From: an uncultured bacterium
Lineage (GTDB): Bacteria; Zhuqueibacterota; QNDG01; DTFT01
Assembly (NCBI GenBank): GCA_963736115.1
Contig: CAVTNR010000003.1
Location: forward strand, 32,001-96,000
DNA: 64,000 bases
Direction of reading: 5' to 3'
How positions within the stretch are numbered: the stretch's first letter is position 1; every line of letters begins with the position of its first letter. Both the position numbers and the translations under genes were made by a program. This document shows, one piece after another, positions 9,607-59,712 of the stretch. Below the pieces are notes generated by a model. That model saw only the letters and a list, made by a program, of their open reading frames with translations, was not told the DNA's origin and did not search any database.

Positions 9607-9764
9607 TGAAAGACCCCGCCGGTTGCAGCGGGGTCTCACGCGAAACTTGGATGATGGACGCCGCAAGCGGCGGGGAATTCGACCCGTCGGAGCGGCCAGA
9701 AGCTCCATCTTCAATCATCCAGAAAAACTGGACCCGGAATGACCAGGCTTCTGGCCGCCCGATT
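9607..9764 (+). repeat. Dispersed structured repeat, family A, copy 1
   Basis: Aligns without gaps over 158 bp to the reverse complement of 57840-57997 (22 mismatches by hand count). Two CCCCGC-type hairpins, then a long stem TCGGAGCGGCCAGAAGC...GCTTCTGGCCGCCCGA. Confidence 0.85.
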
Positions 9765-19788: not shown

Positions 19789-19951
19789 TTGAAGCTCCCC
19801 GCGGCCCGTCCCGCTGCGCGGGACCAAGCTATTCAATTTTTAAATTGTGGAAGGCAAGCCGCGGGAATCTTCTATCTGTAGAGAAGAGATCATTTTATAT
19901 TCGATCGCTTACCCCGCCGCTAGCGGCGGGGTAAGCGATCAGACAGATTCA
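19789..19951 (+). mobile_element. MITE-like palindromic element, family B, copy 1, with a nested insert at 19805-19854
   Basis: Starts TTGAAGCTCCCCGC and ends GACAGATTCA; core GAATCTTCTATCTGTAGAGAAGAGA is shared with 60842-61047 (minus); perfect 38-bp palindrome at 19903-19940. Confidence 0.75.
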
Positions 19952-40327: not shown

Positions 40328-40337
40328 GACCGCGGGG

Positions 40338-41801: not shown

Positions 41802-41910
41802 TGCCGCGGGTTCAGGGTTGTATTTCATCAGGCTGAGCTGTGCGGGGAAAACCGCTGTTCGAAAAGCCGTTAAAGTCAGATAAAATTATTTTTTCGATAA
41901 CACACCGGAA

Positions 41911-41990
41911 AAGACCTGAAAGGTCATTCAGACCTTTCAGGTCTTCTTAACGCTCCGGGAGGTTTGGAACCTCCCGGAGCGTATTTTTAT
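41911..41990. repeat. Two tandem perfect 15-bp inverted repeats (REP-like; the second may act as a terminator)
   Basis: AAGACCTGAAAGGTC-attca-GACCTTTCAGGTCTT (41911-41945) and ACGCTCCGGGAGGTT-tgg-AACCTCCCGGAGCGT (41950-41982) followed by ATTTTTAT. Confidence 0.7.
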
Positions 41991-41998
41991 ATTCACGC

Positions 41999-42026
41999 TT
42001 GACAATCCGTATTTTTTCAATATCTT
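41999..42026 (+). promoter_or_regulatory. Putative sigma70 promoter for the GH5 gene
   Basis: TTGACA (41999-42004), 16-bp spacer, TATCTT (42021-42026); AAGGAGG RBS before ATG 42056. Confidence 0.5.
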
Positions 42027-42055
42027 CCTTTTGTCCATCGACAAGGAGGCCGATC

Positions 42056-44404: not shown

Positions 44405-44809
44405 TTGTCAGCTGCTGAAGCACGCATTAGAAAAACCCTGAAGAAGGGCGGTCCTACGACAAAGCCCAAGTCAGGCCGAAGCTCCGCTCATGAAAATGAA
44501 GACGGAACCTATGCCCGGATTTTCAGTGTTGTCCGCCGGATTCCTGCCGGAAAAGTGACGACCTACGGCCGGATCGCGGGTCTTGCCGGATTTCCCGGAC
44601 AGGCCCGGCTGACGGGATACGCCCTGCACAGCCTGAAGGAGGGAACGGATGTGCCGTGGTATCGCGTTTTAAATGTGTCAGGCAGGATCAGTTTTCCGAC
44701 AGGTTCGGACGCGGAGGCGGTTCAGCGGTCCCTGCTTGAGGCGGAAGGCGTTGTTTTTAAAGAAAACGGATCCGTGGATTTGGAACGGTATGGATGGAAG
44801 AAGCGGTGA
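44405..44809 (+). CDS. Alkyltransferase-like (ATL/YbaZ, MGMT family) protein
   Basis: VRRIPAGKVTTYG.IA.LAG.P..AR..G, PWYRV (Trp where active methyltransferases have Cys), Q..LL.AEGV; TTG start after AAGGAG is inferred. Confidence 0.85.
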   Translation: MSAAEARIRKTLKKGGPTTKPKSGRSSAHENEDGTYARIFSVVRRIPAGKVTTYGRIAGLAGFPGQARLTGYALHSLKEGTDVPWYRVLNVSGRISFPTGSDAEAVQRSLLEAEGVVFKENGSVDLERYGWKKR

Positions 44810-44830
44810 TTCGATGATTGAAAACGGAAC

Positions 44831-44854
44831 AAAGGGACCATCAGGTCCTTTTTT
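44831..44854. terminator. Probable bidirectional terminator between convergent ATL and suhB
   Basis: AAAGGGACC-atca-GGTCCTTTTTT. Confidence 0.65.
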
Positions 44855-44855
44855 C

Positions 44856-44879
44856 GTAGGGGCGCCGCGTCGCCCCTAC
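44856..44879. repeat. GTAG-family REP-like palindrome
   Basis: GTAGGGGCG-ccgcgt-CGCCCCTAC; related copies at 61488-61517 and 63165-63186. Confidence 0.65.
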
Positions 44880-44895
44880 ACATGTGGGACTTTTT

Positions 44896-45699
44896 TTACT
44901 CCACTCCCTTCAAGTGTTTTTTCACGATCCTCAGCATCTGCGGAAACACAGCCGTATTCGCAGACACGATGTTTCCTGTCTCCATGAAGTTCTGACCTCC
45001 CCTGAAATCCGACACAATTCCCCCGGCCTCACGTACGATCAGCACGCCCGCGGCCACGTCCCAAGGCTTCAGTTTCATCTCCCAGAAACCGTCATACCGG
45101 CCGCAGGCCGTATAAGCCAGGTCTATGGCTGCTGACCCCATGCGGCGTATGCCAGCGGATGCGTCGAAAATTTCCTCGAATGAGTCCAGATAGGGCCGCA
45201 GATACCGCTTGGAACGCCAGGGAAACCCGGACGCGAAGAAGCATTCGGACAGGCTTTTTTTGTCGGACACGCTGATCCGCGACCGGTTCCTGAAGGCGCC
45301 GCCCCCTTTGACTGCCCAGAACATCTCGTTATGAACCGGATCAAACACCACGCCCGCCACTGTTTCCCTGTCCACCGCAGCGGCAATGGACACGGAAAAA
45401 ACCGGAATGCCGTGCACGTAATTCGTGGTGCCGTCCAGGGGGTCGATGAACCAGCGGATTTCGGAATTGCCGCTGTCGGTGCCGGACTCCTCGGCCTGGA
45501 TGGAGTGATCCGGAAAGGATTTGCGTATGCGGCGTATGATCGCGGCCTCGGACTTGTGGTCGAGATCCGTGACCCAGTCGCCCGAGCCCTTGGTCCGGAT
45601 CTGGCTTTTTTTCAAGCCGCGGAAGCCACGGAGTATGATACTGCCCCCGATGAGAGCGGCGTCTTTGGCTGTGGAGAGAAGGTTGTCATGTTTCGTCAA
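44896..45699 (-). CDS. suhB: Inositol monophosphatase family protein
   Basis: DWVT..D..SE, EES, WFIDPLDGTTNY.HG, RRMGSAAIDLAY.A.GR.DG.WE, KPWDVAAG. Confidence 0.9.
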   Translation of the reverse strand: MTKHDNLLSTAKDAALIGGSIILRGFRGLKKSQIRTKGSGDWVTDLDHKSEAAIIRRIRKSFPDHSIQAEESGTDSGNSEIRWFIDPLDGTTNYVHGIPVFSVSIAAAVDRETVAGVVFDPVHNEMFWAVKGGGAFRNRSRISVSDKKSLSECFFASGFPWRSKRYLRPYLDSFEEIFDASAGIRRMGSAAIDLAYTACGRYDGFWEMKLKPWDVAAGVLIVREAGGIVSDFRGGQNFMETGNIVSANTAVFPQMLRIVKKHLKGVE

Positions 45700-45773
45700 A
45701 AAAGTGTTCCTCCTGATTCAAATCGGTTATCGCCGTTGACTGGTAGTTCGCAGTTCCATTCTCATTCATCAAA

Positions 45774-45799
45774 TGGATCCCCGCGGTCGCGGGGATGAC
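45774..45799. repeat. GTCA-family REP-like palindrome
   Basis: TGGATCCCCGCG-gt-CGCGGGGATGAC (GTCATCCCCGCG... on the minus strand). Confidence 0.5.
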
Positions 45800-45859
45800 A
45801 TTGAGTATGGTTATGGGGATATACGCCGATTGGCGCAGAGGCTGATGATATCCGCCCGT

Positions 45860-48800
45860 TTACCTGAAATCCCCGGACAGCTCGAACGCTGCCCAGGCGG
45901 ACGGATGGCTGTCCACAGCGTTGCGGACGAGAAGCTGCGCCCTGCGGAGCGCTTCGGCCCTGGAATGACCGGCCCGGACATACCTGTAAAACCGTTTCAT
46001 CAGAACAGCGGAAGCCAGATCATCCACTTTCCACATGCTGGACAGAACGGACGGCGCGCCCGCGGTCATGAAACCCCAGGTGAAGCTTGAAACGCCGTGC
46101 TCGGTTCCGCCTTTTCCGAGACCGGTTTCGCATGCGGATAAAGCCACCAGCCCGCATTTGAGAGACGCGCCGAAAGCGTCCGCTGCGGAAAGACGGCCGT
46201 CATCCACCCCGGAAGGTGACAGGAGCAGGGCCGAGGACAGCGGTTGCTCCGGGACATATGAAGCGTGACAGGCGAAATGCACGACTCCAGTGGCCGCGGC
46301 AGCGTGATCCGAAAAGGTTTTACGTGTGGCGGACAACCCGGAGAAGGCATTCACAGCGCCGAAGGATCTCTTCAGGGAGCGGACCTCCTTGTCCGCGAAC
46401 GGTAGGTTCAGCCGCTCCTCTCCCAGATCGGGGTTGGCGGCCGCGAATACGGATCCCGAAAGCCGGCGGCCGGAAGGGCCGCGATCGGACCGGGCCAGAG
46501 AGAGGCGGAAGGCATCGGCCGACGGTGCGTATGAAATCGACCGGCTGTCGATCAGGGTTTCACCGGCCGCGTTCTGAAGCGCGCCGAAGGGAAGTCCTGC
46601 CAGAACGCCGTGCGGGACTATCACAAGACCGCTGATTCCGGTCAAATCCGCCGTGATCGGATCGATGAGTTTGAGATACAGCGCCTTGGCCTCGATATCG
46701 GGTGAAAGGTTGGATTGGATCGAGGACCGGAATTTTGATATCAAACTTTCCAGTTCCTCGAAAGGCTGATCGACCCGGCGCCAGCGCAATCCTTCCTTAC
46801 GCACCACGCAGATGAAGAGCTCCTTGCGGCCCGTGACGTATTCGATGAGGGCCGTGCTGTCCGGAAGAATCAGCCGTATGTCATCCGGCCGGCATGTTTC
46901 CACTGAAACGATCGAGGCAAGATCCGGATCCGATCGGCGCAGTTCGTCAAGCAGTGCGCGGTGTTCCGATTCGAGGCGGCCGAGTTCCCCGGCAATCGCG
47001 GCCGTTCCGGACAATGAATCCCCGGAATCCGTTTCGACCGCAGGGGAAGAGTCCCGCGCCGGGCGGTTTCGGGCTTCCAGAACAGCCGACTGGGACCGGT
47101 TGATCTTCTCCATCCATCCCCTGCGGCTGCCGGTAAAGAGATCGGAGCGGCCGGACAGGAGTTTCACCACGGGGAAAGCCTTGGCGCGCTCCGCGTAGGC
47201 GAAGGCCTCCTCCGGCCGGCCGGCATCGAGAGACAGGCGTATCGCCTCGTCGTACACGTCCTGCGGTTTTTCAAAATCCCCGAGCCTGAATGATTCCATC
47301 CCCTGGCCGCCGGCCGCATGTTCCGCCGCGTCCACGGCTGTCCGGATCTCCGCGAGCGACTCATCGGCCCGGCCCGACCGGGCGAGCCAAACGGCTCTCT
47401 GGCCGTACATCTGCCAGGCGAGATCCGCTCCGTCCGGGCCCGAGGACTCGGCGATCGCGCTGTCCAGCAGGGCCAGTCCGATACGGATGTCGCCGGAACG
47501 TTCGGTCGCGATGGCGACTCCGTACAGGCTGAGCGCCGCGTTTTTCCGATCCGACATGCCGCGGTACAGTTCAAGGGCCTTTGCGAGCAGAGTTTTCCCC
47601 TCAGCCCACCGGCCCTGCGCCAGAAGCACGCCTCCTATGTTCCGGCGGTCATAGGCGAGCCCGGACTGCAGATTGAGAGCGGAATCGATTTCCATGGCCC
47701 TGGTGAAATAGAAGAGGGCCCTGTCTTTCCGGTCCTCCCGAAGCGCAATCAGTCCCAGGTTTTTCAAGTAAGCCGCGCGATCCTCCTGAAGCCGTGGTTC
47801 GGTTCCGACCGCGTCGAGCGCCCTTTGTTCCGCTATTTTGGCCTGCACGGTATCCCCGAAGCTCAGATGGATGAGCCCCAGAGTGCCGTACGCCATGCCG
47901 ATCCGCTTTTGATCGCCCGAATTCCGGAGCGTGTCGAGAATGCGGTTCTGATGTTCGAGGGCCGTAGCCAGGCTGCCCATTTTCCAATGGACATTCGTCA
48001 GGTATTGCATGCCCTGGACGGTCTGCGGAAACCGGTTCAGCGAACGAAACAGCTCGATTCCTTTTTTCTGCAGGCTGAGAGCCTCGTCGAACCGGGAAAG
48101 CTTTTCGCAGGCAATGCCCAGGAGTTGGACACCGGACGCATGATCGAACCGGAGCCGGTTCTCGGCGCCGGGCCGGTCTTTCAGCGAATCCAGGCCGGCC
48201 ACGCCCGCGGTGAGGAGGGACCGGGCCTCCCAGGTGTCGTCCGCTTCGAGTCTGAACCGGCCTCTGAGCACAAGCGCCCGTGCCAGGCCGGCCAGGTCTC
48301 CGGACGACTGTCTCCGGTCCACCGCTTTTACCATCCATTCATCCGCTTGCCCGTACAGACGCTGGCCCGCGCGTATGAAGGCCATGTCCTCGAAAGCCGT
48401 GAATGCGTCTCCGTTCCGGCTGAGCGAATCCAGAAGCGCAATCTGTCGTTTTTTCGCGGTTGCGGCCGCTTCCGCGTCGCCCGCATTCATGTGAAAAACA
48501 GAGAGATTCCGGAATCCGGAAACCAGTCCGGACGTGTTCGCCGTTCTTTCGGCGCGGCCGAGCAGACGGTTCTGATAGAACACCGCCTTCTGCCAGTTTC
48601 TTCCTCTCATGGAGGAACGGACTATTTCCTGCTCGATTCTGGCGACCCCCACGGAATCGCCCATCATTTCAGTGAGCGACAGCGCTTTCTCGTAAACAAT
48701 GACCGCGTCCGCGTGTTCGGTTTTTTCCTCGAGGCCGCGCGCCTGCAGGACGAAACGCGCCTGATTTTCAGAGGCGAAGGCCGACCTTTCTTCCGAATCC

Positions 48801-51800
48801 ATGCCCGGGAATCCGATGAGACGGAACGCGGAACGGTCGCGGCTCTCGGGGTGCGCCGCCGCCGTGACAACCGCGGCTTTCCGGACCGCGGACGCGAAGG
48901 AAAGCGTGTCCACGGCCGAATAGAAAGCCCGCATGAATGTGCGCCGGATTTCCGGCCGGACCGGCCATGCGGTCCAGACCAGAGAGGGGGCGCCCGCGTA
49001 CAGAAAACCCCAGCTGAAGAGTTCAGGCGACCAGCCGGAATCCGCGGATCCGGACGCCGGAGGCAGAAAAACGCAATTCGCGGTCGCGTCTATCGAGAAG
49101 CATTCCTCGGCCCGGAAATAGCCGTCATCCGAAGAACCCGGCTGGAGAACGATGGAGGATCCCATGGGATCCTCCGGATTGGGCAGTATCCAGGTTGCGA
49201 TGTCTACGAAATCAGCGGATTTCAGCATGGATTTGAATTCCGTCTCAGTCGCGTCAGGTCCGAAGCGGGACGTTTCGGTCAGACCGGCGGACCGGCCCGC
49301 GCCCGCGAGACCACGGTCGGACGACTGGCCGAGCACGGCGCAGGTCCGCTGATTGATCTTTTTACGGTCCGACGCGAGACCGAGAAACGCGAGACTGGGC
49401 GCGTAATCCACGACCGCCCGGGAGACGGCTTCGGATTCCAGGACACGGTCGAAGGCCAGAAACCAGAGGGACTCATCCGGAATGACCGTGATCCGGCCGC
49501 AGGAAGCGAGCATGGGCGAAAAGGGCAGGACGAGCGCGCACAGGAGGCGGCGGGATGCGGAATCGGCCGGAGCGCCGGCCCGCAGGGAATCGGCCCAGGC
49601 CTGTACCGCGGAAGCGGTTAAGCGGCGTCCGAAAGGCAGAACAGCCGCGGCCACGGTGTCCGTAGAAGCGAACCAGGCTGTCGTCCGGTCCGGGCCGGAC
49701 AGATAACAGAGAACCCCCTCTCCCGGGCCCAGAGAAGCGATGCGCGCCTCAGCGTCCGGGGGGAGAGCGCCCGCGAGATAGGCGAGCAGGCCGTCTTCGT
49801 TTTCCAGACTTTGCATCTGGGCCGCGAAATCGGACTCGAGCCTTTTTTCCTCATTTTTCAGGCGTCTCATGTGGGAAGGCCGTGTTTTCAGAGCGGACGC
49901 GGCGAGAATCTCGTTTCTCTTTTCCGAGAGTAAAGCACGCGTGAAGCGGAGATTGCCCCAGGCGATTTTGTGTCTTTCCTTACGGAGATCCGGAGGCCGG
50001 CGCATGAGGATGTCGGCCACGCGTTTCTGCCTTCCGCGCTCCGCAATCCTGAGACCTTCGAGGGCGTTTCCCGAACGAACCAGCGCTTCGGACGCTTTTA
50101 CGTACAGATCACCGCGCGCCTCCCGGTCCATGCGACGGATGTCCGCGGTATTTTCCTCGATGGGGAGCAGTTCCAGCCTGTCCATCGCGGACCGGAAAAG
50201 GATGACGGCCTCGTTGAGCCGGCCGGAATCAGGATCCGCGGAGGCGGAGGCCAGCAGATCCGCCAGGCCGGCCTCGGCGCGCCACAGCATTTCGCCGTCG
50301 CCCAGGCGGATCAGCAATTCCCGGCTTTCGCGCAGTTTCGCTTCCGCTGAGGCGTGTTCCCCCAGGAACCGGTCGAGTTCCGCCGACTGGGCGAGCAGGA
50401 TGGCTCGGGTCCTGCCGTTCTCGCCCGCGAGATCGAGCCCCGCTCGGAACTGACGGTCAGCCTCGGATGTCCACGCGAGAGACTGAAGCGAGAGGCGGAC
50501 GGCCGCTTCAAGTGGAATCCCCTCCGGCTGTGAAGCGCATGTCCGGGAGAGCACCGTATACAGGGTTCCCAGGGTCCCGTGCGCCGAAGCCCGGTCGGAA
50601 GCGGACACGGGCGGATCCCCGGCCGCGGGGGAATGATTCCCGTCGAAACCCTCCAAAGCGGCTTTTAATATGTTTTTCGCGGCTGTAATGTCAGACACGT
50701 CCCCGTTCAGCGAGTACCGGACAACGGCCGCTGTGCCGAGGTTCACGGCATTGGCCCATTGGCCCGGGCCGTCTTTCGCCTTGAGAGAGGCTTCGTACGA
50801 CTCGCTGAAATGCCGCCAGGCGCTGTCATAGGCAGCGGCTTTGAAATGGAGGAGACCCAGCCGGTTGAGGCTGATTCGCTCGCCGAGGCGCTCCTTCCCG
50901 CCGCGGAAGAGTTCGAGACGCTTTTTTTCAGCGGAGATGGAAGGGCCGTACTGATTCAGCGATTCAGCGCTCCGGCTGATGAGACTCAGCACGAAAGCCA
51001 TTTCGTCGGCCGGGGTGAATCCCGCCGCCGAAGCCCTGCCGAGTTCCTCCATTCCCCAGACCGGAACGGAGAATCCGAACAGGCCGAGGCGCAGGTAGTT
51101 TTTATCGGGCTTGCCGGGCGAGATTTTTCGTCCCGCCATCAGGCTTTCCGCTTTCCGCGCAAACCGGAGGGCGTCTTCGGATTCCCCGAGCAGATGATAA
51201 TTGTAGGCGACGTTCCGGTAGTCGAGTTCCAGCCGGTCGAGACGGCCCGCGTTTTCGTCCTTTTGCGCGAGACTCAGATAGAGGGGTACGGCATCCTCGT
51301 ACCGGCCCGAGCGCTGGCGGAGAAGAGCCAAACGTCCCAGGCTGATCAGCGCCGCCTCCTCGCGTCCCATGGCGCTGTAGGTCGCCACCGCGGTTTCAAG
51401 ACACCGGGCGGAGAAATCGAAGTCGTCCATGTAGAGCGCGGCATGACCGGCGCGTTCGTGAAAAGTGGCCTTTTGCTCAAGTCCCGCGAAGACGGTGTCC
51501 AGATCCAGGCGGCGCTTGTAGTGCTGAAGCGCTCGGGTGTACCCGAATTCTCCGAGATGGTAGAAGTTGTTCGCCAGGTTCTGCGTGAGCGCGGTTTCCA
51601 TGGCCGGGTCCGCGCTTTCGTCGTTCAGCTCGATGGCCTCGGTGAGAGCGTCGATCGCTTTTTCCAGGTACCCGGTTTCCGTCCGCTTTTTTCCGAAGGG
51701 AAGGGCGCCGAACAGCCAGGTGGCCGGCGAGACCAGGGTTTTAGCGGCCCGAACCGCGACAGGCTGTTTCCTGGCCCTTTCCCGCTGCTGATGGCTTTCG

Positions 51801-54094
51801 AGCAGTTCGAAGTTGTAGCCCAGGGTTCGGTACGGGTAAACGACCCGGTAATCCTCCTCGAGGGACTGGAGGAGCACCGCGTTGGAACGGTTCAGCGTTT
51901 CGGGATTCGATTCGCCCTGGTATGAAAGGGCGAGACCGAAAGCATAGAGGAGAATGGGGTTTTTCGGCTTCTGGCCGAGAAGCTCGCCGTACTTGTCCAC
52001 TACCTCGTCGATACGGCCGAGCCGGTGCTGGATCTCCACGTATCCCCGGTGGGCCCGGATGTCGTTCGGGTTCGTGGTCAACGCCTTCCAGTAACGGCTG
52101 GCCGCGAGCGAAGGGTCCCCCTGGTTTTTCAGCCGCTCCGCGGACTGGAAGGCCACGTTGAAAAGCGCCTCCCGGATTGGGCCCTCATACCGGCCGCCTT
52201 CCAACGATCCGAATTCCTTTTGCGCCGACTCCAGAATGAAAATCGCCCGGAGTTCGTCACCCCTGCGGCGGCTGACTTCCGCATGACGGATCCTCGCCTC
52301 CGCGTGCGCCCAGTACTGGGTGGGCACCAGCTCCGGGACGCGTTCGAGCTCGCGGGCCGCTTCGTCATTCCGTCCCGATTCCATCAGCAGGTCCACGATC
52401 GCGAACTGGGCCTGGGCCATGAGCGCCGGGTAATCGGAGAACGACTGAATCATACGGCCGAAATGCGCGATCCGCTCCTCGGCGGAGCCGGTCACCTGCT
52501 CCAGCAGGCGCCTTCCGGAGCGCTCGCGCCACAGCGGCACGTCGCCCAGCTCGCGCAGCACGGAGAAATACGCCTGCCGCGCGGTTTCCTCCTGGCCCCA
52601 GGATCGCAGAAGGTCCCCGATTTTCATCTGCGCCTGTCCGCGGCTGTTCCGGAGGCGAGGGAAATCGGAGAGCACGCGGCCGTACGCGGAGAAGCCCTCC
52701 GAACGGAGACCCTTGTCGAGCAGAAGGTCCCCCAGGAGAATCCACGCATCGGCCCGGATCGCGGGGTCTGCGGATTCGGAGGCGATGAGCCGCCTGCAGT
52801 AGCCGATGCGGTTGTCCGCGGCTTCGGATTTCAGGCCCGCTTTTTTCAGAAGCGCGGTTTCGGTTTCACGGGTTCTTCCCGTATATCCGGAAATGACCCG
52901 GTCGAATGCCATGGCCGCATTCCGGTCATGACCCAGAACCGTTTCCAGTTCACCGATGCGCAGCCAGGCCCTGGCGGACCAGAGCGAATCCGACGGAAAG
53001 AGCGAAGAGATTTTTCTGTATTCCACGATTTGCTGTCTGAAGGCCGCTTCGGTTTCCGATTCCGAAAACCGGAGTTCCGCGTCCGCAGTCATTTCCGCGG
53101 CTTGCGGCCGCAGTCGGATCAGGCCGTTTTCAGGGATGGACCAGATGTCCGGATTCTTCCCGTTGTCGGATTCAAAATAGATCAGCCCGGACCGGCTCCA
53201 GTCGGGCCTGGTATCGTCCGACAACCCCGATGTGATCTGGAATTCGGCTTGCTGAAGTCCTGCCAGACTGTCCGGAAGTCCGCCCCACAGCCGCACCCAG
53301 ATGTGCCCCTGGTCGACCGGGGTGACTTTTCCGTCTCCGTCCGTGTCCGAATCCCGGCGCACGAAAGCGATGCGGTCCGAACCCGTGGACCAGCAGGCGC
53401 GGCTGTCGAGCGCGGGGCCTTCCGTGACAGCCGTAATCCGATGGATCCCGATTTGACCGTCCGCCCCGGATCCGAGTTCCAGGAGAGCGATGTCGCCGCC
53501 GGGATCGCGCAGGAATGAGGTGAATAGAATGGAACGGCCATCCGGCGACCATGACGGATCCGTGCCGCCGTTTCGGGTGAGAGGCTCGGATTTTTTCGTC
53601 GCAGGATTGAGAAGCTGGAGATTTTGGAGCCCGCCCTCATCCGATACATAAACGATTCTCCTACCGGCGGGGGAGAAGCGCGGACTGCGCTCCGGTCCCA
53701 GGCGGTCGGTCAACGGAACGGGATCGCCGGATGGGGCGCAGCCCTGCCTGGGATCAACCCGGACCATCCACAGGTCGCCTTCCGCGTCGCGGCGTCTCGA
53801 GGCGAAAACGATCGTCTTGCCGTCCTGTGACCAGGCCGGATCGAGGTCGTCCGCCTCGTGCGTCGTGATCCGCACGGCGTCCCCGCTGGGCAGGCGTTTC
53901 ACCCAGATGTCGGGGTTGCCGGAGCGCTCGGACACGAACGCGAGCCATCTGCCGTCGCGCGAAACCGAGGGTGCAAAATCGGCCTGGGGGTATACCGTTA
54001 CCTGCCTGATTTCAGGCATTTCCCCGGCCGCGAAAACCGCGGACGCCCATGCGACGATCGGGAGGACAAAGATTTTCGTGCGGCGTGTAATCAT
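45860..54094 (-). CDS. Giant exported protein: PD40/TolB-like beta-propeller, TPR arrays, two CHAT (caspase-like) domains
   Basis: Signal peptide; repeats PSVSRDGRWLAFVSERSGNPDIW, PAWSQDGKTIVFAS, PSWSPDGRSILF; long Ala/Leu helical repeats; C-terminal IVPHG.L..LPF, VVHFACHA, VALSACETG, SMWKVDD, ALRRAQ, HP..WAAF.L.G. Confidence 0.88.
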   Translation of the reverse strand: MITRRTKIFVLPIVAWASAVFAAGEMPEIRQVTVYPQADFAPSVSRDGRWLAFVSERSGNPDIWVKRLPSGDAVRITTHEADDLDPAWSQDGKTIVFASRRRDAEGDLWMVRVDPRQGCAPSGDPVPLTDRLGPERSPRFSPAGRRIVYVSDEGGLQNLQLLNPATKKSEPLTRNGGTDPSWSPDGRSILFTSFLRDPGGDIALLELGSGADGQIGIHRITAVTEGPALDSRACWSTGSDRIAFVRRDSDTDGDGKVTPVDQGHIWVRLWGGLPDSLAGLQQAEFQITSGLSDDTRPDWSRSGLIYFESDNGKNPDIWSIPENGLIRLRPQAAEMTADAELRFSESETEAAFRQQIVEYRKISSLFPSDSLWSARAWLRIGELETVLGHDRNAAMAFDRVISGYTGRTRETETALLKKAGLKSEAADNRIGYCRRLIASESADPAIRADAWILLGDLLLDKGLRSEGFSAYGRVLSDFPRLRNSRGQAQMKIGDLLRSWGQEETARQAYFSVLRELGDVPLWRERSGRRLLEQVTGSAEERIAHFGRMIQSFSDYPALMAQAQFAIVDLLMESGRNDEAARELERVPELVPTQYWAHAEARIRHAEVSRRRGDELRAIFILESAQKEFGSLEGGRYEGPIREALFNVAFQSAERLKNQGDPSLAASRYWKALTTNPNDIRAHRGYVEIQHRLGRIDEVVDKYGELLGQKPKNPILLYAFGLALSYQGESNPETLNRSNAVLLQSLEEDYRVVYPYRTLGYNFELLESHQQRERARKQPVAVRAAKTLVSPATWLFGALPFGKKRTETGYLEKAIDALTEAIELNDESADPAMETALTQNLANNFYHLGEFGYTRALQHYKRRLDLDTVFAGLEQKATFHERAGHAALYMDDFDFSARCLETAVATYSAMGREEAALISLGRLALLRQRSGRYEDAVPLYLSLAQKDENAGRLDRLELDYRNVAYNYHLLGESEDALRFARKAESLMAGRKISPGKPDKNYLRLGLFGFSVPVWGMEELGRASAAGFTPADEMAFVLSLISRSAESLNQYGPSISAEKKRLELFRGGKERLGERISLNRLGLLHFKAAAYDSAWRHFSESYEASLKAKDGPGQWANAVNLGTAAVVRYSLNGDVSDITAAKNILKAALEGFDGNHSPAAGDPPVSASDRASAHGTLGTLYTVLSRTCASQPEGIPLEAAVRLSLQSLAWTSEADRQFRAGLDLAGENGRTRAILLAQSAELDRFLGEHASAEAKLRESRELLIRLGDGEMLWRAEAGLADLLASASADPDSGRLNEAVILFRSAMDRLELLPIEENTADIRRMDREARGDLYVKASEALVRSGNALEGLRIAERGRQKRVADILMRRPPDLRKERHKIAWGNLRFTRALLSEKRNEILAASALKTRPSHMRRLKNEEKRLESDFAAQMQSLENEDGLLAYLAGALPPDAEARIASLGPGEGVLCYLSGPDRTTAWFASTDTVAAAVLPFGRRLTASAVQAWADSLRAGAPADSASRRLLCALVLPFSPMLASCGRITVIPDESLWFLAFDRVLESEAVSRAVVDYAPSLAFLGLASDRKKINQRTCAVLGQSSDRGLAGAGRSAGLTETSRFGPDATETEFKSMLKSADFVDIATWILPNPEDPMGSSIVLQPGSSDDGYFRAEECFSIDATANCVFLPPASGSADSGWSPELFSWGFLYAGAPSLVWTAWPVRPEIRRTFMRAFYSAVDTLSFASAVRKAAVVTAAAHPESRDRSAFRLIGFPGMDSEERSAFASENQARFVLQARGLEEKTEHADAVIVYEKALSLTEMMGDSVGVARIEQEIVRSSMRGRNWQKAVFYQNRLLGRAERTANTSGLVSGFRNLSVFHMNAGDAEAAATAKKRQIALLDSLSRNGDAFTAFEDMAFIRAGQRLYGQADEWMVKAVDRRQSSGDLAGLARALVLRGRFRLEADDTWEARSLLTAGVAGLDSLKDRPGAENRLRFDHASGVQLLGIACEKLSRFDEALSLQKKGIELFRSLNRFPQTVQGMQYLTNVHWKMGSLATALEHQNRILDTLRNSGDQKRIGMAYGTLGLIHLSFGDTVQAKIAEQRALDAVGTEPRLQEDRAAYLKNLGLIALREDRKDRALFYFTRAMEIDSALNLQSGLAYDRRNIGGVLLAQGRWAEGKTLLAKALELYRGMSDRKNAALSLYGVAIATERSGDIRIGLALLDSAIAESSGPDGADLAWQMYGQRAVWLARSGRADESLAEIRTAVDAAEHAAGGQGMESFRLGDFEKPQDVYDEAIRLSLDAGRPEEAFAYAERAKAFPVVKLLSGRSDLFTGSRRGWMEKINRSQSAVLEARNRPARDSSPAVETDSGDSLSGTAAIAGELGRLESEHRALLDELRRSDPDLASIVSVETCRPDDIRLILPDSTALIEYVTGRKELFICVVRKEGLRWRRVDQPFEELESLISKFRSSIQSNLSPDIEAKALYLKLIDPITADLTGISGLVIVPHGVLAGLPFGALQNAAGETLIDSRSISYAPSADAFRLSLARSDRGPSGRRLSGSVFAAANPDLGEERLNLPFADKEVRSLKRSFGAVNAFSGLSATRKTFSDHAAAATGVVHFACHASYVPEQPLSSALLLSPSGVDDGRLSAADAFGASLKCGLVALSACETGLGKGGTEHGVSSFTWGFMTAGAPSVLSSMWKVDDLASAVLMKRFYRYVRAGHSRAEALRRAQLLVRNAVDSHPSAWAAFELSGDFR

Positions 54095-54648
54095 TTCCGG
54101 ATCCAGGTCCCGTCCGTTTTTTGTGTCCAGGTTCCGTCCGGCGAGTTGTCCTGGTACATTTTCGCGAATACCCCGGCCACGTCGGCCGGTACGGCCCGCT
54201 TGAGCGCGTCATTCAACTCCACCACGCGTTCCAGGATAACGGCGCGGTCGCTATTCTCCTCCGCGATGATTTCTTCCACAAAACGCTTCTCTTCCGCGCT
54301 GAAATCGGAATCCGCGGCTGCCCTCGGGACGAGACGGCCGTCATTCGTTTCGCCGACCCATCCTTTCCGCTTGAACTCCTCCACGTCGTCGCGGTTGAAC
54401 GCCTGCTGCTGGAGGGCCTCGAGGGATCGCCGTTTTTCCGGGGACATGATCGGCGATTCCGGAGCGGGAGCCGCGGCACGGGTCGAGGCGGCCATCCAGG
54501 TGTCCTCGCGCATCAACGAATAGGTTCCGAGTATTTCCTTTTCCAGTGATGTCTTTTCCCCGGTCACGTTCACCACCTCGGGAAGGCGAACACTGCACGA
54601 GAGGCAGGCGGCCAGAATCGTCGGCCCGATCAGGAATTTAATCTGCAT
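54091..54648 (-). CDS. DUF1318 (YdbL-like) lipoprotein
   Basis: Lipobox LSC; K..GWVGETNDG.L, ENSDR, GTWTQ..DG.W..K pattern; ATGA overlap with the CHAT gene. Confidence 0.78.
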   Translation of the reverse strand: MQIKFLIGPTILAACLSCSVRLPEVVNVTGEKTSLEKEILGTYSLMREDTWMAASTRAAAPAPESPIMSPEKRRSLEALQQQAFNRDDVEEFKRKGWVGETNDGRLVPRAAADSDFSAEEKRFVEEIIAEENSDRAVILERVVELNDALKRAVPADVAGVFAKMYQDNSPDGTWTQKTDGTWIRK

Positions 54649-54661
54649 CGGTCACCCCGAA

Positions 54662-57600
54662 TTATTTCTCCGTGAACAAGGCCATATTCTGCATCATAAA
54701 TTCCACGGACAGACGTCCGTAGATGATCCTGTCCGTCATATTCAGCGGAACGAACCATGGTTTCTCGATATACAGCGAGGGATAGACGAATCCGTGGCGT
54801 AATTCGAAGGAGAAGACGCGCGGCTTGTACCAGAGATTGAGCAGGCGGCGCGTCATCCGGATCGAGGCGTCGGTTCCCTGTGGATCGAGCCCCTGGAGGA
54901 GCAGGTCCGTGAACTGGGGGCCGATCCGGGTGATGTTGAGCGCTCCCACGGCGTTCGACAGGGAATCCGGACCCAGGCCCCGGCCGGTGAAGTCCAGGCA
55001 TGCATCCAGCTCGGATTTTTCTCCGACCCTGTCGGTTTTAAGCAATGCGGCCGAATTGATGCGGGCTGCGGTCGCCCGGACCGCATAGGTCATGGACTCC
55101 GGCCGGCCGTTGTTCAGGTCGAGACGGAGGCTTCCGGCCAGGTTTCCGCCGAGAAGCCGGGCGCTGAACCGGGGGACCTGTATCATCCCCTGCCCGGCTG
55201 ACACATCCAGCCGGATGTCTTCGATGCGATAGTCGGCCGCGCGTACGGACGCGATGGAGATTTCCGAAATGCCGGGGAACAGGCGTTTGAAAAGGCCGCG
55301 ATCCGTTTCATAGGCCATCGGCGGGAATACGGTTTTCCGGGCCGGAACGAGAAGCCTCGCCTTCAACGGATCCGCTTCGAATTCGAACGGGATGCGGCCC
55401 CGGATGCCGAGGACTTCGACCAGAGGCGGACTGAAAACGGCCAGGGAATCGGAGACCAGTTCTCCGGAAAGCGTCAGGCGGCGGGGATTCGAGTCGTCGG
55501 TGTTTATGGAACAGCCGCCGGACGCGTCTCCCAGAACGAGCAGGAGCGGAGCGAAGCGGACCGAATCGGTTGAAGAGAAAACAAAGTCGGCCCGTCCCTT
55601 CAGGCCCGGGAATGCGCCGTCGAGTGTCGCGTCCAGGCCGGCCTTGGCCTGCAAAGCGAGATCCGGGACGGAAAGACTCAAATCCCTGACGGACAGGCGA
55701 TCCGGCGCATCGAAGGAAAACCCGAAGGCGGCCGTCGAACCGGTGATCGGTTCCGGCCGCATCCGCGAGAGAGTCAGGTCCCCAGCGGTCAGGGAACCGC
55801 TTCCCTCCAGGCGGCTGCTGCTGCCTGAGAAATCCACGCGGCCGTCCAAGCCCGAGACCCGAATGAATTGCAACGGCAGAAGCATGCCGGCATCCTCTAC
55901 GGTCAGGCTTCCCCTGATCTCCACAGCATTCGGGTCGCCGCCCGGCGCGGTTCGGATCGAGGCGTTCAGCCGTTCCGCGCCGAATGCTGTGATGCCTTCG
56001 AGTATTTCAGCCAGCGTGTCGGGCAGAAATCCGGGCAGGGCCGCGTTCCGGATCATGGCGTCCTTCAGGGTGAAAGAGAAGCCGGCCCGCGAAGGATCGA
56101 TTTCTCCGAAGAGCCCGGCCGTGATGCAGTCCAGAGCGCGGAAATCGGTCTTTTCAAGGACCCATTTCCGGAATGCGTTTTCAGGCCGCCACACCATGTC
56201 CGCGTCCAGCCGGACGGGTTTCAGGGTTTCGGTTTTTCCGCCGTACGGATAGCGGACGGACGGAGCCGAAGCGTACAACGAGACATGAAAGAGGCGGCCG
56301 GCCGAGGGTTTCACTTCGATTCCCGCGTCAAAAAGGCCGGAAAGGCCCGGAGGAGCGGCAGGCAGGCCGGACAGGTCAGCGTCGGCCAGACGAACCGAGC
56401 CCACTACGGACAGGGAATCCGGGGTTGCATTGCCGAGTTCTTTCGCGGCCCAGGTCGCGTCCAGATTTACGGATCCGCCGAACAGTTTCTGAACGGAGCC
56501 GGTCAGGGTGCCGGCCGTGGGCATGCCTTTGTTGTCCAGAATGGCCATGAGATCCAGGCTTGATTCGTCCGCTGTGACGGAAATGGAATCATTGATCGCG
56601 TATCGGAACCGGGGAATGCGGAGCGAGCCGGACGCTTCAGCCCTGCGCAGTCCTTCTGTGGAGGCATTTCCGCTGAACCGCAGGCTTGCTTCACCGTTTT
56701 CCAGTTTTATTGGAGGAAGCGGACTGCTCATCGTCAGTCCTCTGATTCCTGGCGCGATGCTGAATCGGATGTTGTCCAGGGCGCCTTTGACGTTTCCGAC
56801 GCCCAGGTCCAAGGTTCCGCGGATTTCAACAGGCCGCAAGGCTTTGGACAGGGTGTCCGGCAGATATCGCAGCAGAACGGGCTTGAGTGATTCCAGCGGA
56901 AACGGCCTGCCGGACAGAGTGAAATCCACTGAAGGAACGCTGTCCGGCATGGAGAAAAGCCCTTTGGCCTGCACGAGTATGCGCGATACGGCTGTCACGT
57001 CGCATGAATCAAGTAGGATTTCTTCGGCAATGCCTTTTCCCTTGATTCGGAAAAGGATGCCTGCGACGTGGCCGGAGTCGGCTCCCGCGTCCAGTAGTTC
57101 CGCTTTTCCGCCGAATGTCCACCGGCCTTTTCCGGCCCAACGGAAACGCATGTCCGCTTCAGGACGGAAGAGGAAGCGTCCATGCGCCGCGACCACGGAC
57201 AGGCGGGCGTTTTTCGCGAACAGGCGGATGTTGCCGTGGACATTGTCCACCGATTGGCCGGCTTCAGGCGGCACCCAGAGATTGTCCGCTTCGAGATTCA
57301 GTCCTTCCAGATCGATTCCGGAGAGGGATGGGGAGCCGGGAATGACAGCGCTGAAACTGAAATCGTGGAGTTCGAGGTGCCGTATACCGATGCCGAGCGG
57401 AAGCGTTTTCGGGGGTTGCTTGGGCTCGGATGGTTTCACGGCCAGTTCACGCAATGCGGTCATGAAACTGTCCGACAGCGCGAGGTCGGGATTTTCCACG
57501 CGGATTTCGGATATGGAAAGCTCGCGGCGCAGAAGGGGGGCGATACGGAAACGGACGAACAGCCGCTCCAGCTCAAGGAAGCGGACGGCTTCCGCTTCCG

Positions 57601-57865
57601 GGCCGGTCTGAACGGAAACCCGCACGTCCCTGAAATCCAGACGGCCGGGCGTGCGCCAGGCGAGGCTCCGGATTTCCACGGGCCACCCCGCGGTCCGGCT
57701 CTGTGATTCAATGAAGGAGAGAATGCGGCCCACAGGGAAGAAAAGCCAGAACGCGATCACCATCAGCGTGACCGCGGCTGCGATTCCCGCGATGGCCAGA
57801 GCCGTAATCCGGAGAATCCGGCGCAGGCGTTTTTTCTTCAATCGGGCGGCCAGAAGCCTAGTCAT
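54662..57865 (-). CDS. AsmA-like / YdbH-like bridge protein with an N-terminal membrane anchor
   Basis: Basic N-terminus plus one TM helix; L.LERL.VRF...PLLRR.L.I.EI.V.NP AsmA-type start; about 1,000 aa of amphipathic beta strands; C-terminal F.A.LLGG.L.G; directly upstream of DUF1318. Confidence 0.7.
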   Translation of the reverse strand: MTRLLAARLKKKRLRRILRITALAIAGIAAAVTLMVIAFWLFFPVGRILSFIESQSRTAGWPVEIRSLAWRTPGRLDFRDVRVSVQTGPEAEAVRFLELERLFVRFRIAPLLRRELSISEIRVENPDLALSDSFMTALRELAVKPSEPKQPPKTLPLGIGIRHLELHDFSFSAVIPGSPSLSGIDLEGLNLEADNLWVPPEAGQSVDNVHGNIRLFAKNARLSVVAAHGRFLFRPEADMRFRWAGKGRWTFGGKAELLDAGADSGHVAGILFRIKGKGIAEEILLDSCDVTAVSRILVQAKGLFSMPDSVPSVDFTLSGRPFPLESLKPVLLRYLPDTLSKALRPVEIRGTLDLGVGNVKGALDNIRFSIAPGIRGLTMSSPLPPIKLENGEASLRFSGNASTEGLRRAEASGSLRIPRFRYAINDSISVTADESSLDLMAILDNKGMPTAGTLTGSVQKLFGGSVNLDATWAAKELGNATPDSLSVVGSVRLADADLSGLPAAPPGLSGLFDAGIEVKPSAGRLFHVSLYASAPSVRYPYGGKTETLKPVRLDADMVWRPENAFRKWVLEKTDFRALDCITAGLFGEIDPSRAGFSFTLKDAMIRNAALPGFLPDTLAEILEGITAFGAERLNASIRTAPGGDPNAVEIRGSLTVEDAGMLLPLQFIRVSGLDGRVDFSGSSSRLEGSGSLTAGDLTLSRMRPEPITGSTAAFGFSFDAPDRLSVRDLSLSVPDLALQAKAGLDATLDGAFPGLKGRADFVFSSTDSVRFAPLLLVLGDASGGCSINTDDSNPRRLTLSGELVSDSLAVFSPPLVEVLGIRGRIPFEFEADPLKARLLVPARKTVFPPMAYETDRGLFKRLFPGISEISIASVRAADYRIEDIRLDVSAGQGMIQVPRFSARLLGGNLAGSLRLDLNNGRPESMTYAVRATAARINSAALLKTDRVGEKSELDACLDFTGRGLGPDSLSNAVGALNITRIGPQFTDLLLQGLDPQGTDASIRMTRRLLNLWYKPRVFSFELRHGFVYPSLYIEKPWFVPLNMTDRIIYGRLSVEFMMQNMALFTEK

Positions 57866-57997
57866 TCTGGTTCCAATTTTTCTGGATGATCCGAGATTGG
57901 GCTTCTGGCCGCTCCGACGGGCCTGATGCCCCGCCGCTTGCGGCGTCGAGCATCCAAGTTTCTTGTGATACCCCGCTGCTTGCGGCGGGGTCCTTCA
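57840..57997 (-). repeat. Dispersed structured repeat, family A, copy 3
   Basis: Reverse complement matches 9607-9764; begins at the kamA stop codon and overlaps the start of the AsmA-like ORF. Confidence 0.85.
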
Positions 57998-59065
57998 ACG
58001 TTCCGGTCCGGCAGGCGCGGGGTATCGATACTCCGCGCCGAGATAATTGCGGAAGATCCAGTCGCCCTTTTCCTTCCGCAGGGTGTAGCCCGGCACGAGC
58101 GGCACCTTGCCGCCGCCGCCCGGCAGGTCCACCACATAATGCGGCAGGGCCAGTCCCGTCACGTGACCTCTCAGCTTGTCCATGACCGCCAATCCGGTTT
58201 CGATGGTCGTCCTGAAATGGTCCGTGCCTTTGGTGAGATCCGTCTGGAGCAGGTAATAGGGCCGCACGCGCATTTTCAGAAGGCCGCGGAAAAGAGCGGC
58301 CAGAACGGAGGAGTCATCATTAATGCCTTTCAGCAGGACCGTCTGGTTTCCCAGCACGGCGCCCGCATCCGACAGCCGGTTGCAGGCCTGGGCGGCGGTT
58401 TGCGTCAGTTCAGCCGGATGGTTGAAATGCACGTTGATATAGAGGGGCCGGATTTTTTTTAGTATTTTTGCGAGGGACGGGGTCACGCGCGACGGCAGAA
58501 CGCAGGGCATGCGCGTTCCGAGTCGTATGGTCTCGACATGCGGAATTTCGCGGAGCCTGCGGAGTATCCACTCCAGCCGTTCGTCAGACAGCATGAGAGG
58601 ATCTCCGCCGGACACCAGCACGTCCCGAATCGCAGGCGTCATGCGGATGTACCGGATGCCGTCGTCGATTTCCCTGACGGATACGGCTTTGCCGCGGCCG
58701 ATGCGGCGCTTGCGCGTGCAGAAGCGGCAGTACACGGCGCAGACATTCGTCACGGTGAACAGGACGCGGTCCGGGTAGCGGTGGGTGATCTGGGGGACGG
58801 GGCTGTTGGCGTCCTCGGCGAGGGGGTCGTCCATGCCGATACAATCTTCGAGTTCACGGGGGTCCGGAACAACCTGATCGAGAAGGGGCCTGCCGGTTTT
58901 CACGGCCAGGTCGAGGAAATACGGATTGATCCGCATGGGATACGCATCGGTTACGGGCTTGATTTTCAGGGGGTCTATCGGAATTCGTCCGGCCAGGGCC
59001 TTCGGAGTCTCCACCGAGCGGCGAAGAAAGTCTTTCCAGGAGGGGATTTTGGATGTGGATTTCAT
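57995..59065 (-). CDS. KamA family radical SAM protein (lysine/glutamate 2,3-aminomutase-like)
   Basis: THRYPDRVL, CAVYCRFCTRKR, SGGDPL, HFNHP.E, NQTVLLKGIND, VRPYYL, DLPGGGGK (PLP Lys). Confidence 0.92.
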   Translation of the reverse strand: MKSTSKIPSWKDFLRRSVETPKALAGRIPIDPLKIKPVTDAYPMRINPYFLDLAVKTGRPLLDQVVPDPRELEDCIGMDDPLAEDANSPVPQITHRYPDRVLFTVTNVCAVYCRFCTRKRRIGRGKAVSVREIDDGIRYIRMTPAIRDVLVSGGDPLMLSDERLEWILRRLREIPHVETIRLGTRMPCVLPSRVTPSLAKILKKIRPLYINVHFNHPAELTQTAAQACNRLSDAGAVLGNQTVLLKGINDDSSVLAALFRGLLKMRVRPYYLLQTDLTKGTDHFRTTIETGLAVMDKLRGHVTGLALPHYVVDLPGGGGKVPLVPGYTLRKEKGDWIFRNYLGAEYRYPAPAGPER

Positions 59066-59131
59066 AATAGTGTCGCTCTGAGCTATGCTTACATGCTTTG
59101 CCCCTGAAGAGCCTCCCGAAGGAACGTTCCC

Positions 59132-59431
59132 CTACTCCTCCCCATCCCCCAGCTCCTTCGCCATCACCCAATGCTTTTTGTCATCGAGTTTGGTGCCGCG
59201 ATCGCAGTACATCTCGAAGGCGGCGCCTGAATCCGTACGTACATGGAAATAATTACGGTGCCTGCGCGTCCGCCAGGTCTTTTTGTGGGCCAGGGGAGAG
59301 AAATCGTAATCCTGCCATTGGCGGAGCACGGAAATCACCCGGTATTCCCGTCTCTTCCATTTGAAAGAGACCGGCACGCCGCCTTTTTCCGTTTCAACCG
59401 TTCTGAGGGGCTCGCAGATGAACCGCTTCAC
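59132..59431 (-). CDS. DUF6504-like small protein
   Basis: P..F.W..REY.V..V...W.D...R.YF.V.T..G..FE.Y.DR...W pattern. Confidence 0.65.
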   Translation of the reverse strand: MKRFICEPLRTVETEKGGVPVSFKWKRREYRVISVLRQWQDYDFSPLAHKKTWRTRRHRNYFHVRTDSGAAFEMYCDRGTKLDDKKHWVMAKELGDGEE

Positions 59432-59712
59432 GGCAGTTCTTCCAGCACAGAAAGCACGAGATGCACGTCTGCTTCCTTGAGCCGGTCGAACAGTTCCTTG
59501 GCTTTTCCGTCCATCTGGATCATGCGGACCACCTCGTCCACGGTCCTTTCCGTGAAGAAGGTGCCGACGTACCGCGTGCCGTTCGACGAGTGCCTGAAGA
59601 TCGTGAAGCGGACCTCGTGACCCGCCCAGTAATCCCTGAAATCGTCCACGTCGGCCAGCAGTCTGCCCGCGTCCTCGGGGTCGAGCTCGAATTCAAGCGT
59701 AATCATTCGCAT
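59428..59712 (-). CDS. Small hypothetical protein
   Basis: 94 codons, GC-rich codon style, 4-bp overlap with the next gene. Confidence 0.6.
   Translation of the reverse strand: MRMITLEFELDPEDAGRLLADVDDFRDYWAGHEVRFTIFRHSSNGTRYVGTFFTERTVDEVVRMIQMDGKAKELFDRLKEADVHLVLSVLEELP

Follow-up and report, generated by a model that had tools for sequence, protein, structure and literature searches.

A conserved gene trio of Zhuqueibacterota may join an AsmA-like envelope bridge to a giant exported TPR-CHAT protein

What would a giant, apparently exported caspase-like protein be doing in the same string of genes as the parts of an intermembrane lipid bridge? The question is raised by a locus within 64,000 nucleotides of DNA (hereafter the window; GenBank assembly GCA_963736115.1, contig CAVTNR010000003.1, positions 32,001 to 96,000) from an uncultured sediment bacterium of the Zhuqueibacterota (KSB1 group), where three open reading frames lie co-oriented and head to tail on the minus strand, as do all of their features given below. 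These are A (P0001, 1067 residues, 54662-57865), predicted to be an inner-membrane-anchored AsmA-like or repeating beta-groove (RBG) protein; L (P0002, 185 residues, 54091-54648), a predicted lipoprotein in which a conserved tether and a helix precede a YdbL-like domain; and C (P0003, 2744 residues, 45860-54094), a predicted exported giant with the order PD40-TPR-pseudoCHAT-TPR-CHAT. At present AsmA-like bridges are the leading candidates for how phospholipids reach the outer membrane in diderm bacteria and, to our knowledge, their partners and regulation are barely known outside E. coli. We propose, with confidence that is about evenly balanced, that A, L and C form one conserved cell-envelope module in which an intermembrane bridge resembling YdbH/YnbE/YdbL is joined by a lineage-specific periplasmic scaffold-protease partner.

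The gene packing itself invites such a proposal. A first-pass annotation of the window had described three linked genes with a 13-nucleotide gap and an ATGA overlap, and both junctions are present as placed, with the TAA stop of A followed by 13 nucleotides that include GGGGTG and then the ATG start of L, and with the stop of L and the start of C overlapping as ATGA. As judged from these junctions, the arrangement is suited to translational coupling. The three frames are not chance open reading frames, because homologues at 21-85% identity keep the same order in dozens of genomes.

To what extent, then, does the trio hold together beyond this one genome? An L homologue was present in 37 of 41 relatives, and around 36 L homologues outside the window's own genome C lay directly downstream on the same strand in every case (36/36), with A upstream of L in 32/36 and less than 500 nucleotides of contig available upstream in the remaining four. 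A wider scan, taking one genome per species and scored with hidden Markov models (HMMs) built from that first set of relatives, yielded 80 L loci whose record titles name candidate division KSB1, Ca. Zhuqueibacterota, Calditrichota or Caldithrix, along with a few other labels. C followed L at 57 of the 67 assessable loci and A preceded it at 40 of 60, and the 52 loci with both flanks readable comprised 32 with A-L-C, 12 with L-C, one with A-L and seven with L alone. We also assessed co-occurrence irrespective of position among 121 genomes of the phylum that were at least 85% complete, including the unpublished genome G084 (which holds all three genes), using the N-terminal 800 residues of C as its query. 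This revealed L in 89 genomes, C in 90 and a full-type A in 90, with three more genomes giving only a weak N-terminal AsmA-type match. All three genes were found together in 87 genomes and none of them in 29, while the intermediate states were rare: L and C only in two (G068 and G098), A and C only in one (G053, whose sequence has withheld bases), and A only in two (G079 and, as a fragment, G092). In G059, a closed genome of 6.5 Mb from this phylum, the three genes are contiguous, and a Caldithrix-labelled metagenome-assembled genome (L102) carries L-C. The genes are single-copy and phylum-wide, with a family-wise (vertical) distribution outside variable islands. The A-L-C linkage is conserved across KSB1/Zhuqueibacterota and Calditrichota, and the co-localisation across genomes that the first-pass annotation had proposed to search for is borne out by these counts.

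The trio also outlasts its own surroundings. The genes that flank it in the window, a KamA-like radical-SAM gene upstream of A (57995-59065, same strand, about 130 nucleotides away) and an inositol monophosphatase (IMPase) gene downstream of C (44896-45699), are kept far less, at 11 of 36 loci and 10 of 31 loci respectively, as against the 57/67 and 40/60 given above. Such a difference is hard to square with the idea that the linkage is inherited gene order without shared function, in which A and L would form a bridge and C would be an unrelated periplasmic TPR protein lying downstream by chance. That idea gains from the fact that most of our counts come from one phylum of kin, from the seven loci at which L stands alone, and from the contact among A, L and C being something that we deduce rather than see. 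It has more difficulty with rearranged loci, where C and A stay close in a different order: family f16 has L at another place and a FecR-domain gene between C and A, in the order C to A (3/3 loci fetched). By coordinates, C and A share a contig in genomes G053 and G117 as well. The presence or absence of L agrees with that of C in 120 of the 121 genomes, and the start and stop codons overlap. Divergent versions occur in metagenome-assembled genomes labelled as other phyla as well, since four such genomes with an L locus also hold an orthologue of the C-terminal CHAT domain of C (E 1e-95 to 1e-129), and two of them (L129 and L131) have a divergent A-L-C string that runs to the contig end. We consequently give little credence to inherited order as the whole explanation and infer from linkage and co-occurrence that C is tied to the bridge.

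Variant loci show further genes beside the trio. The FecR-domain protein between C and A has 267 residues (L134, 6218-7021, minus strand); FecR domains are the periplasmic sensor parts of anti-sigma factors. The relocated L is preceded by a conserved protein of about 737 residues (L135, 8433-10646, minus strand, with homologous positions in L137/L107, L079, L080, L139/L089, L097 and L095) that belongs to no family of Pfam or NCBIfam and is not similar to A by profile comparison. A second AsmA-family gene (857 residues, L135) downstream of the relocated L was considered as a general feature and set aside, as among 11 loci searched it recurs in a single near-identical one. One family carries two genes between A and L (about 283-306 and about 492 residues, with no confident family assignment; L084, 7573-9903, and L081, 4224-6600).

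Is A a plausible bridge? Pfam AsmA (PF05170) matches its residues 868-977 at 39.3 bits (cut-off 29.8), and the DUF748, GspN-type and TamB matches in Pfam and NCBIfam are all sub-threshold. An AlphaFold2 (AF2) model, built on a 24-row alignment, has a mean predicted local distance difference test score (pLDDT) of 84.4 and a predicted TM-score (pTM) of 0.60, and comprises one long helix at residues 7-42 followed by some 60 uninterrupted beta-strands to about residue 1048. The helix coincides with a basic stretch and a hydrophobic run and is a predicted N-terminal transmembrane anchor (57740-57847), and the secondary structure of the model puts the predicted periplasmic beta-groove rod at residues 63-1050 (54716-57679). 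Searching the PDB with this model, Foldseek placed the bridge-like lipid-transfer protein LPD-3 first (9cap_A, E 5e-9, probability 1.00) and also found an N-terminal fragment of Vps13 (6cbc_B, probability 1.00), with low global TM-scores (0.11-0.16) as expected for long flexible rods. The 1,067-residue protein is thus predicted to be an AsmA-like/RBG-type rod, and the description of it as a membrane-anchored beta-groove protein agrees with the model. It is best conserved over the C-terminal 170 residues or so, with invariant and near-invariant columns concentrated at 898-1057, and it is about 190 residues longer than E. coli YdbH. The same genome has two TamB-family genes on other contigs, which makes A one of at least three AsmA-clan proteins there.

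The lipoprotein L gives the locus its closest link to a known bridge. Its lipobox cysteine, Cys18 (54595-54597), is invariant in 20/20 aligned homologues and is followed by a near-invariant segment and a helix, after which a hypervariable linker leads to the DUF1318 domain (Pfam, residues 88-185, 41.1 bits, cut-off 27). In the segment at residues 19-33 (PEVxVTGExT; 54550-54594), P23, E24 and G30 are invariant among the 20 homologues and V26, V28, T29, E31 and T33 are conserved in at least 90%. The AF2 model of L (pLDDT 82.9) has this stretch extended at a pLDDT of about 50, then a helix at 34-55 (85-88) and, after the loose linker of residues 56-69, a compact region at 70-185, such that the most conserved segment of the protein is the one that is unstructured in the monomer model. 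Relative to E. coli YdbL, L has a conserved N-terminal extension of 50 residues. The compact YdbL-like domain (residues 70-185, 54094-54441) finds a sole significant fold match in the PDB, the crystal structure of E. coli YdbL itself (28oj; Foldseek E 2.7e-4, TM-score 0.80 on target, root-mean-square deviation 2.7 A), and profile comparison agrees (hhalign probability 93.7%, E 1.8e-7). Together with the invariant Cys18, these matches uphold the assignment of L as a YdbL-like lipoprotein.

How the E. coli proteins fit together suggests what the extra parts of L could do. The lipoprotein YnbE adds a strand to the groove of YdbH and places its C-terminal helix in YdbL (PMC11126948; bioRxiv 10.64898/2026.03.16.712125), and YdbL R61 is among the residues that contact this helix (bioRxiv 10.64898/2026.03.16.712125). 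R61 and N58 of YdbL align with R135 and N132 of L, both invariant in 20/20 L homologues. By analogy with the YnbE strand, residues 19-33 of L are a candidate strand for beta-augmentation, and any helix held by the YdbL-like domain could be its own helix 34-55 or come from another protein. L probably resides in the outer membrane, judging by the Ser at its +2 position. In E. coli, Ser at this lipoprotein position is an outer-membrane sorting signal, a rule that may not hold in Zhuqueibacterota.

What kind of protein is C, and does it reach the same compartment? Its first 23 residues (54026-54094) resemble a signal peptide, in that a basic n-region leads into a hydrophobic core and AFA precedes the mature start. 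The conserved propeller-start motif could be located in 28 of the 36 homologues examined, and upstream of it 24/28 have a hydrophobic 12-mer with a mean Kyte-Doolittle value of at least 2.0, the other four scoring 1.67-1.97. C is accordingly predicted to be exported by Sec to the periplasm. Residues ~25-335 (53090-54022) form a predicted TolB-like PD40 beta-propeller (Pfam PD40, 117.6 bits in four stretches), for which NCBIfam TolB (TIGR02800) gives 108.5 bits over residues 30-193 against an equivalog cut-off of 343, with profile positions 228-384 of 418 alone matched. A first TPR/helical-repeat array follows at residues ~336-1480 (49655-53089), recognised by TPR-family matches and found in all full-length homologues by purpose-built segment HMMs. 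Two CHAT domains (Pfam CHAT, 248.6 bits in two stretches) come next, CHAT1 at residues ~1481-1770 (48785-49654) and CHAT2 at ~2441-2744 (45863-46774; Pfam CHAT 4-289/289), separated by a second TPR array of about 670 residues (~1771-2440, 46775-48784; TPR_12, TPR_2 and TPR_8 at 2107-2204, and PDB TPR matches). Public databases name this family merely 'CHAT domain-containing protein' or 'TPR repeat protein'; of 7,999 candidates scored, those reaching E<=1e-10 make up 58 clusters.

Export of this kind raises the possibility that C is cargo. A and L would then serve, in the manner of TamB, as a device for assembly or translocation that brings C to the outer membrane or cell surface or fixes it there, and the targets of the protease would lie beyond the module, among envelope or extracellular proteins for instance. 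AsmA-like TamB does work in outer-membrane protein assembly in other bacteria, C is by its sequence exported and is always encoded with A and L, and it still lies beside A where L has moved away. Yet Pfam shows no beta-barrel, autotransporter or sorting domain in C, the locus has no TamA/BamA-like gene, the genome has its separate TamB-family genes on other contigs, and the YdbL-like domain of L suggests the logic of a YdbH-type bridge. We regard a cargo role as improbable, and nothing points to the export of C by the bridge that had been floated when the locus was first described.

Whether C is an active protease depends on which of its CHAT domains one considers. The two are clearly homologous (hhalign probability 100%, E 2.6e-45), with 'IATW' of CHAT1 over 'FACH' of CHAT2 and 'LPPASGS' over 'LSACETG', so that in CHAT1 the catalytic His is replaced by Trp and the Cys is missing. 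Among 44 middle CHAT domains, both dyad residues occurred in two only (L111 and L117), where the length filter had taken the C-terminal domain instead, and the sequences mark CHAT1 as a catalytically dead pseudoprotease. CHAT2 keeps the dyad, His2610 (46265-46267) and Cys2655 (46130-46132), as do 22/22 full-length relatives and 39/42 members of a wider set, that is, 39/39 complete genes, the three exceptions (L098, L099 and L119) being genes cut by contig ends in which the middle domain was picked up instead. From this intact dyad CHAT2 is predicted to be a live caspase-like protease domain. The idea of an exported CHAT protease therefore stands as regards its conserved signal-peptide-like segment and the dyad of CHAT2, and falls for one of its two CHAT domains. 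None of the failures foreseen in the first-pass annotation, be it loss of the linkage, lack of a beta-groove fold in A or a non-functional signal peptide in C, appeared in silico.

Some families of the phylum have a shorter C of ~1,640-1,840 residues, still beside A and L. In two of these (L035, 1815 residues; L052, 1831 residues) the protein has the propeller and the two first TPR blocks and stops after a dead domain of the CHAT1 type, and Pfam CHAT finds no match in either. Since these short forms keep the trio, the conserved core is the propeller-TPR-pseudoCHAT scaffold, and the live TPR-CHAT module appears from the sequences to be an addition or a loss-prone part whose dyad is strictly kept where it is present. 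We also considered the invariant Ser55 and Arg57 of L ('ASTR', before the variable linker) as a cleavage site for CHAT2 and dropped the idea, because the Arg is kept where C lacks a live CHAT (L035 and L051) and is thus not tied to the protease. Elsewhere in the window's own genome there is a second CHAT-domain locus (G000:C8:167848-170963) with open frames of 371 and 1019 residues (CHAT, 153.9 and 25.9 bits), which may be a split or frameshifted TPR-CHAT gene.

The PDB matches of CHAT2 bring up a different role for C. The CHAT2 profile finds Csx29-type TPR-CHAT structures best in the PDB (8d9f_A, E 3.2e-8) and also DdvA of Myxococcus xanthus (8rot_B, E 9.4e-5), an anti-sigma factor with a solved periplasmic TPR-CHAT region (PMC11506125; PDB 8rot/8rw5) that has been proposed to be a signal-activated autoprotease (PMC11506125). 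On this pattern C would be the periplasmic sensor-protease of a stress or defence pathway, its TPR or propeller sensing envelope damage or a phage protein and its CHAT domain then firing, with A and L a mere target or neighbour, and the FecR-domain gene between C and A in one family fits that picture. Neither a sigma factor nor an anti-sigma factor, as gene or as domain, occurs in the trio of the window, though, and Pfam and NCBIfam give C itself no anti-sigma match; its propeller begins about 25 residues from the N-terminus. PADLOC matched no defence model except generic TPR (no systematic CRISPR scan of the window was made), and NCBIfam Csx29 (NF041237) gives C 24 bits against a cut-off of 300. 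Single-copy genes distributed family-wise in 87 of 121 genomes, with no variable island, and a module kept in lineages without a live CHAT likewise sit poorly with a sensor of this kind, which we consider quite improbable, and nothing favours the defence role entertained in the first-pass annotation. That annotation had also taken characterised bacterial TPR-CHAT proteins to be cytoplasmic, which the periplasmic TPR-CHAT of DdvA contradicts (PMC11506125).

How might a bridge module with a protease partner work? A would be anchored in the inner membrane and span most of the periplasm as a lipid groove, while L, lipid-anchored and probably in the outer membrane, would cap or extend the C-terminal end of A with its near-invariant strand segment and hold a helix in its YdbL-like domain. 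L could in this manner combine the roles of YnbE (anchor, strand and helix) and that of YdbL (a helix-binding chaperone) in one chain, and A and L together may act like the YdbH-YnbE-YdbL intermembrane phospholipid bridge. C would be a Sec-exported periplasmic scaffold of TolB-like propeller, long TPR solenoid and dead CHAT, extended in most lineages by a TPR-CHAT module with a live dyad to give a separase-like pair of pseudo and active domains, and might bind the A-L assembly through surfaces of its propeller or TPR arrays. In lineages that have the live CHAT, this domain may carry out a regulated cleavage of C itself or of a bridge or envelope component and so control the assembly or turnover of the bridge. 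That its substrate lies within the module is possible but somewhat doubtful. More speculative, and in our judgement unlikely, is the specific version in which a separase-like periplasmic protease docks on the AsmA-like bridge via L and cuts a bridge component or itself, so as to turn the bridge on, off or over, forming a dedicated proteolytic checkpoint for the supply of lipid to the outer membrane. If true, such a checkpoint would be shared by several diderm phyla that have been little studied, and would be missing from the model organisms in which AsmA-like bridges first came to light.

Several observations weigh against our proposal of a bridge with a protease partner. By sequence A is not a member of the YdbH family, giving no match to Pfam DctA-YdbH (PF11739) at E<=10 and an hhalign probability of 0.4% against E. 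coli YdbH, and the label 'YdbH-like' given to it earlier survives for gene neighbourhood and fold class, not for family membership, with no YnbE homologue to accompany it. L likewise shows no match to the YnbE family (Lipoprotein_19, PF13617) at E<=10, comparison with E. coli YnbE aligned the lipobox only (hhalign probability 4%), and a scan of the window's own genome, which is 87% complete, found no Lipoprotein_19 match at E<=0.1. The linkage has its gaps, for 12 of the 52 fully readable loci have no A within 10 kb of L-C and L is alone at a further seven. Absences are mostly of whole families (f8 0/14, f14 0/8), and such structuring by family implies few independent gain or loss events behind the co-occurrence. 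Finally, lineages that keep the trio without a live CHAT show the live protease to be dispensable for the core function of the module. A fusion of YnbE and YdbL in L was considered too and gets no backing from sequence in the Lipoprotein_19 and hhalign results just given, the likeness surviving as one of architecture alone.

The surroundings of the trio hold a number of other features. Scans of 44500-59500 for regulatory signals stayed at shuffle level, with 2 promoter-like sites against 2.4 expected from shuffles and 19 terminator-like sites against 16.3. For 52500-56500, a look through sequencing data turned up small-share DNA contigs from one sediment study and no RNA dataset. The gap of about 130 nucleotides between the KamA-like gene and A holds two copies of a GC-rich hairpin (57931-57988), and palindromic hairpins of this sort, CCGCCGCWWGCNGCGG with at most one mismatch, give 10 strand-matches against 0.1 expected from shuffles (57931-57988, 9616-9673 and 19914-19929) and may be intergenic elements of the repetitive extragenic palindromic (REP) type or terminators. 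A PMT_2 gene, encoding an ArnT-like membrane glycosyltransferase, lies 3.7 kb upstream of A on the plus strand (61573-63108), and in two other species a PMT_2 gene sits between L and C (L122, 10613-12172; L091, 5683-7221), positions that may indicate a loose tie of the module to envelope glycosylation. On the other side, three plus-strand genes at 39215-43390 encode probable secreted carbohydrate-active proteins, the first with CBM_4_9, Big_7 and a C-terminal FlgD_ig, the second GH99/GH71-like and the third of 463 residues with a C-terminal FlgD_ig; this common FlgD_ig C-terminus may be a sorting tag.

What does the locus add to what is known? A literature search, with supplementary files outside its reach, found no work linking CHAT or PD40 proteins to AsmA-like or DUF1318 proteins, and searches that combined the CHAT domain with periplasm or signal peptide, or with TPR, secreted or outer membrane, returned unrelated work only. 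A periplasmic TPR-CHAT protein as such is already known in DdvA (PMC11506125). Should C prove to be a partner that is translationally coupled throughout the phylum, about 300 kDa in size and equipped with a live caspase-like domain, it would be a new kind of accessory for AsmA-like bridges, hinting that a protease can be dedicated as a partner to lipid bridges of the outer membrane and offering a concrete handle on their regulation in the form of one catalytic Cys, one lipoprotein and one rod. The locus further suggests that one lipoprotein may unite functions of the YnbE and YdbL types, and that the roles of exported TPR-CHAT proteins extend beyond defence signalling.

Compared with the E. 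coli YdbH-YnbE-YdbL system, the trio shares an inner-membrane-anchored AsmA-like beta-groove protein, here predicted, encoded directly upstream of a DUF1318/YdbL-type gene, and it has a lipid-anchored element, a superposition of L on YdbL (28oj) and an invariant Arg in L corresponding to the one that contacts the YnbE helix. It differs in three ways, namely an AsmA-like rod without the YdbH-family sequence signal, one lipoprotein in place of YnbE and YdbL with no separate YnbE found, and a third coupled gene for a 2,744-residue PD40-TPR-CHAT protein that has no counterpart in the E. coli operon. E. coli YdbL is soluble in the periplasm, whereas L has a lipobox, a strand-like segment and a helix ahead of its YdbL-like domain. 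The YnbE strand is disordered when modelled without YdbH (bioRxiv 10.64898/2026.03.16.712125), and the conserved strand-like segment of L is similarly unstructured when modelled alone. DegP degrades YdbL in vitro unless YnbE is bound (bioRxiv 10.64898/2026.03.16.712125), so that proteolysis already touches this type of bridge in E. coli.

Among TPR-CHAT proteins, DdvA crosses the membrane once, has a zinc anti-sigma domain on the cytoplasmic side, forms dimers and controls a defence regulon (PMC11506125). C likewise has a predicted extracytoplasmic TPR-CHAT region with the canonical His-Cys dyad, but it differs from DdvA in its cleavable-type signal peptide, TolB-like propeller, tandem of dead and live CHAT domains, AsmA-like and YdbL-like neighbours and lack of a sigma partner. 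With Csx29 of the type III-E craspase and with separase it has in common that a caspase-like CHAT domain comes after a TPR solenoid, and separase too combines a pseudo-protease with an active protease domain (PMC11506125), a pairing that C matches with its pseudo-protease and active-type domains. Those proteins are cytoplasmic or nuclear and regulated by RNA or securin, unlike C, in which the two CHAT domains are also set about 670 TPR residues apart. A last comparison is with TolB of the Tol-Pal system and with CpoB/YbgF. C scores far below the equivalog cut-offs of both (343 and 90) and lacks the N-terminal domain of TolB, and no tolQRA or pal genes are present at the locus. It resembles them in having a predicted periplasmic PD40 propeller and a weak YbgF-type TPR match, and the analogy with TolB that this offers for C is that of a propeller binding an outer-membrane lipoprotein.

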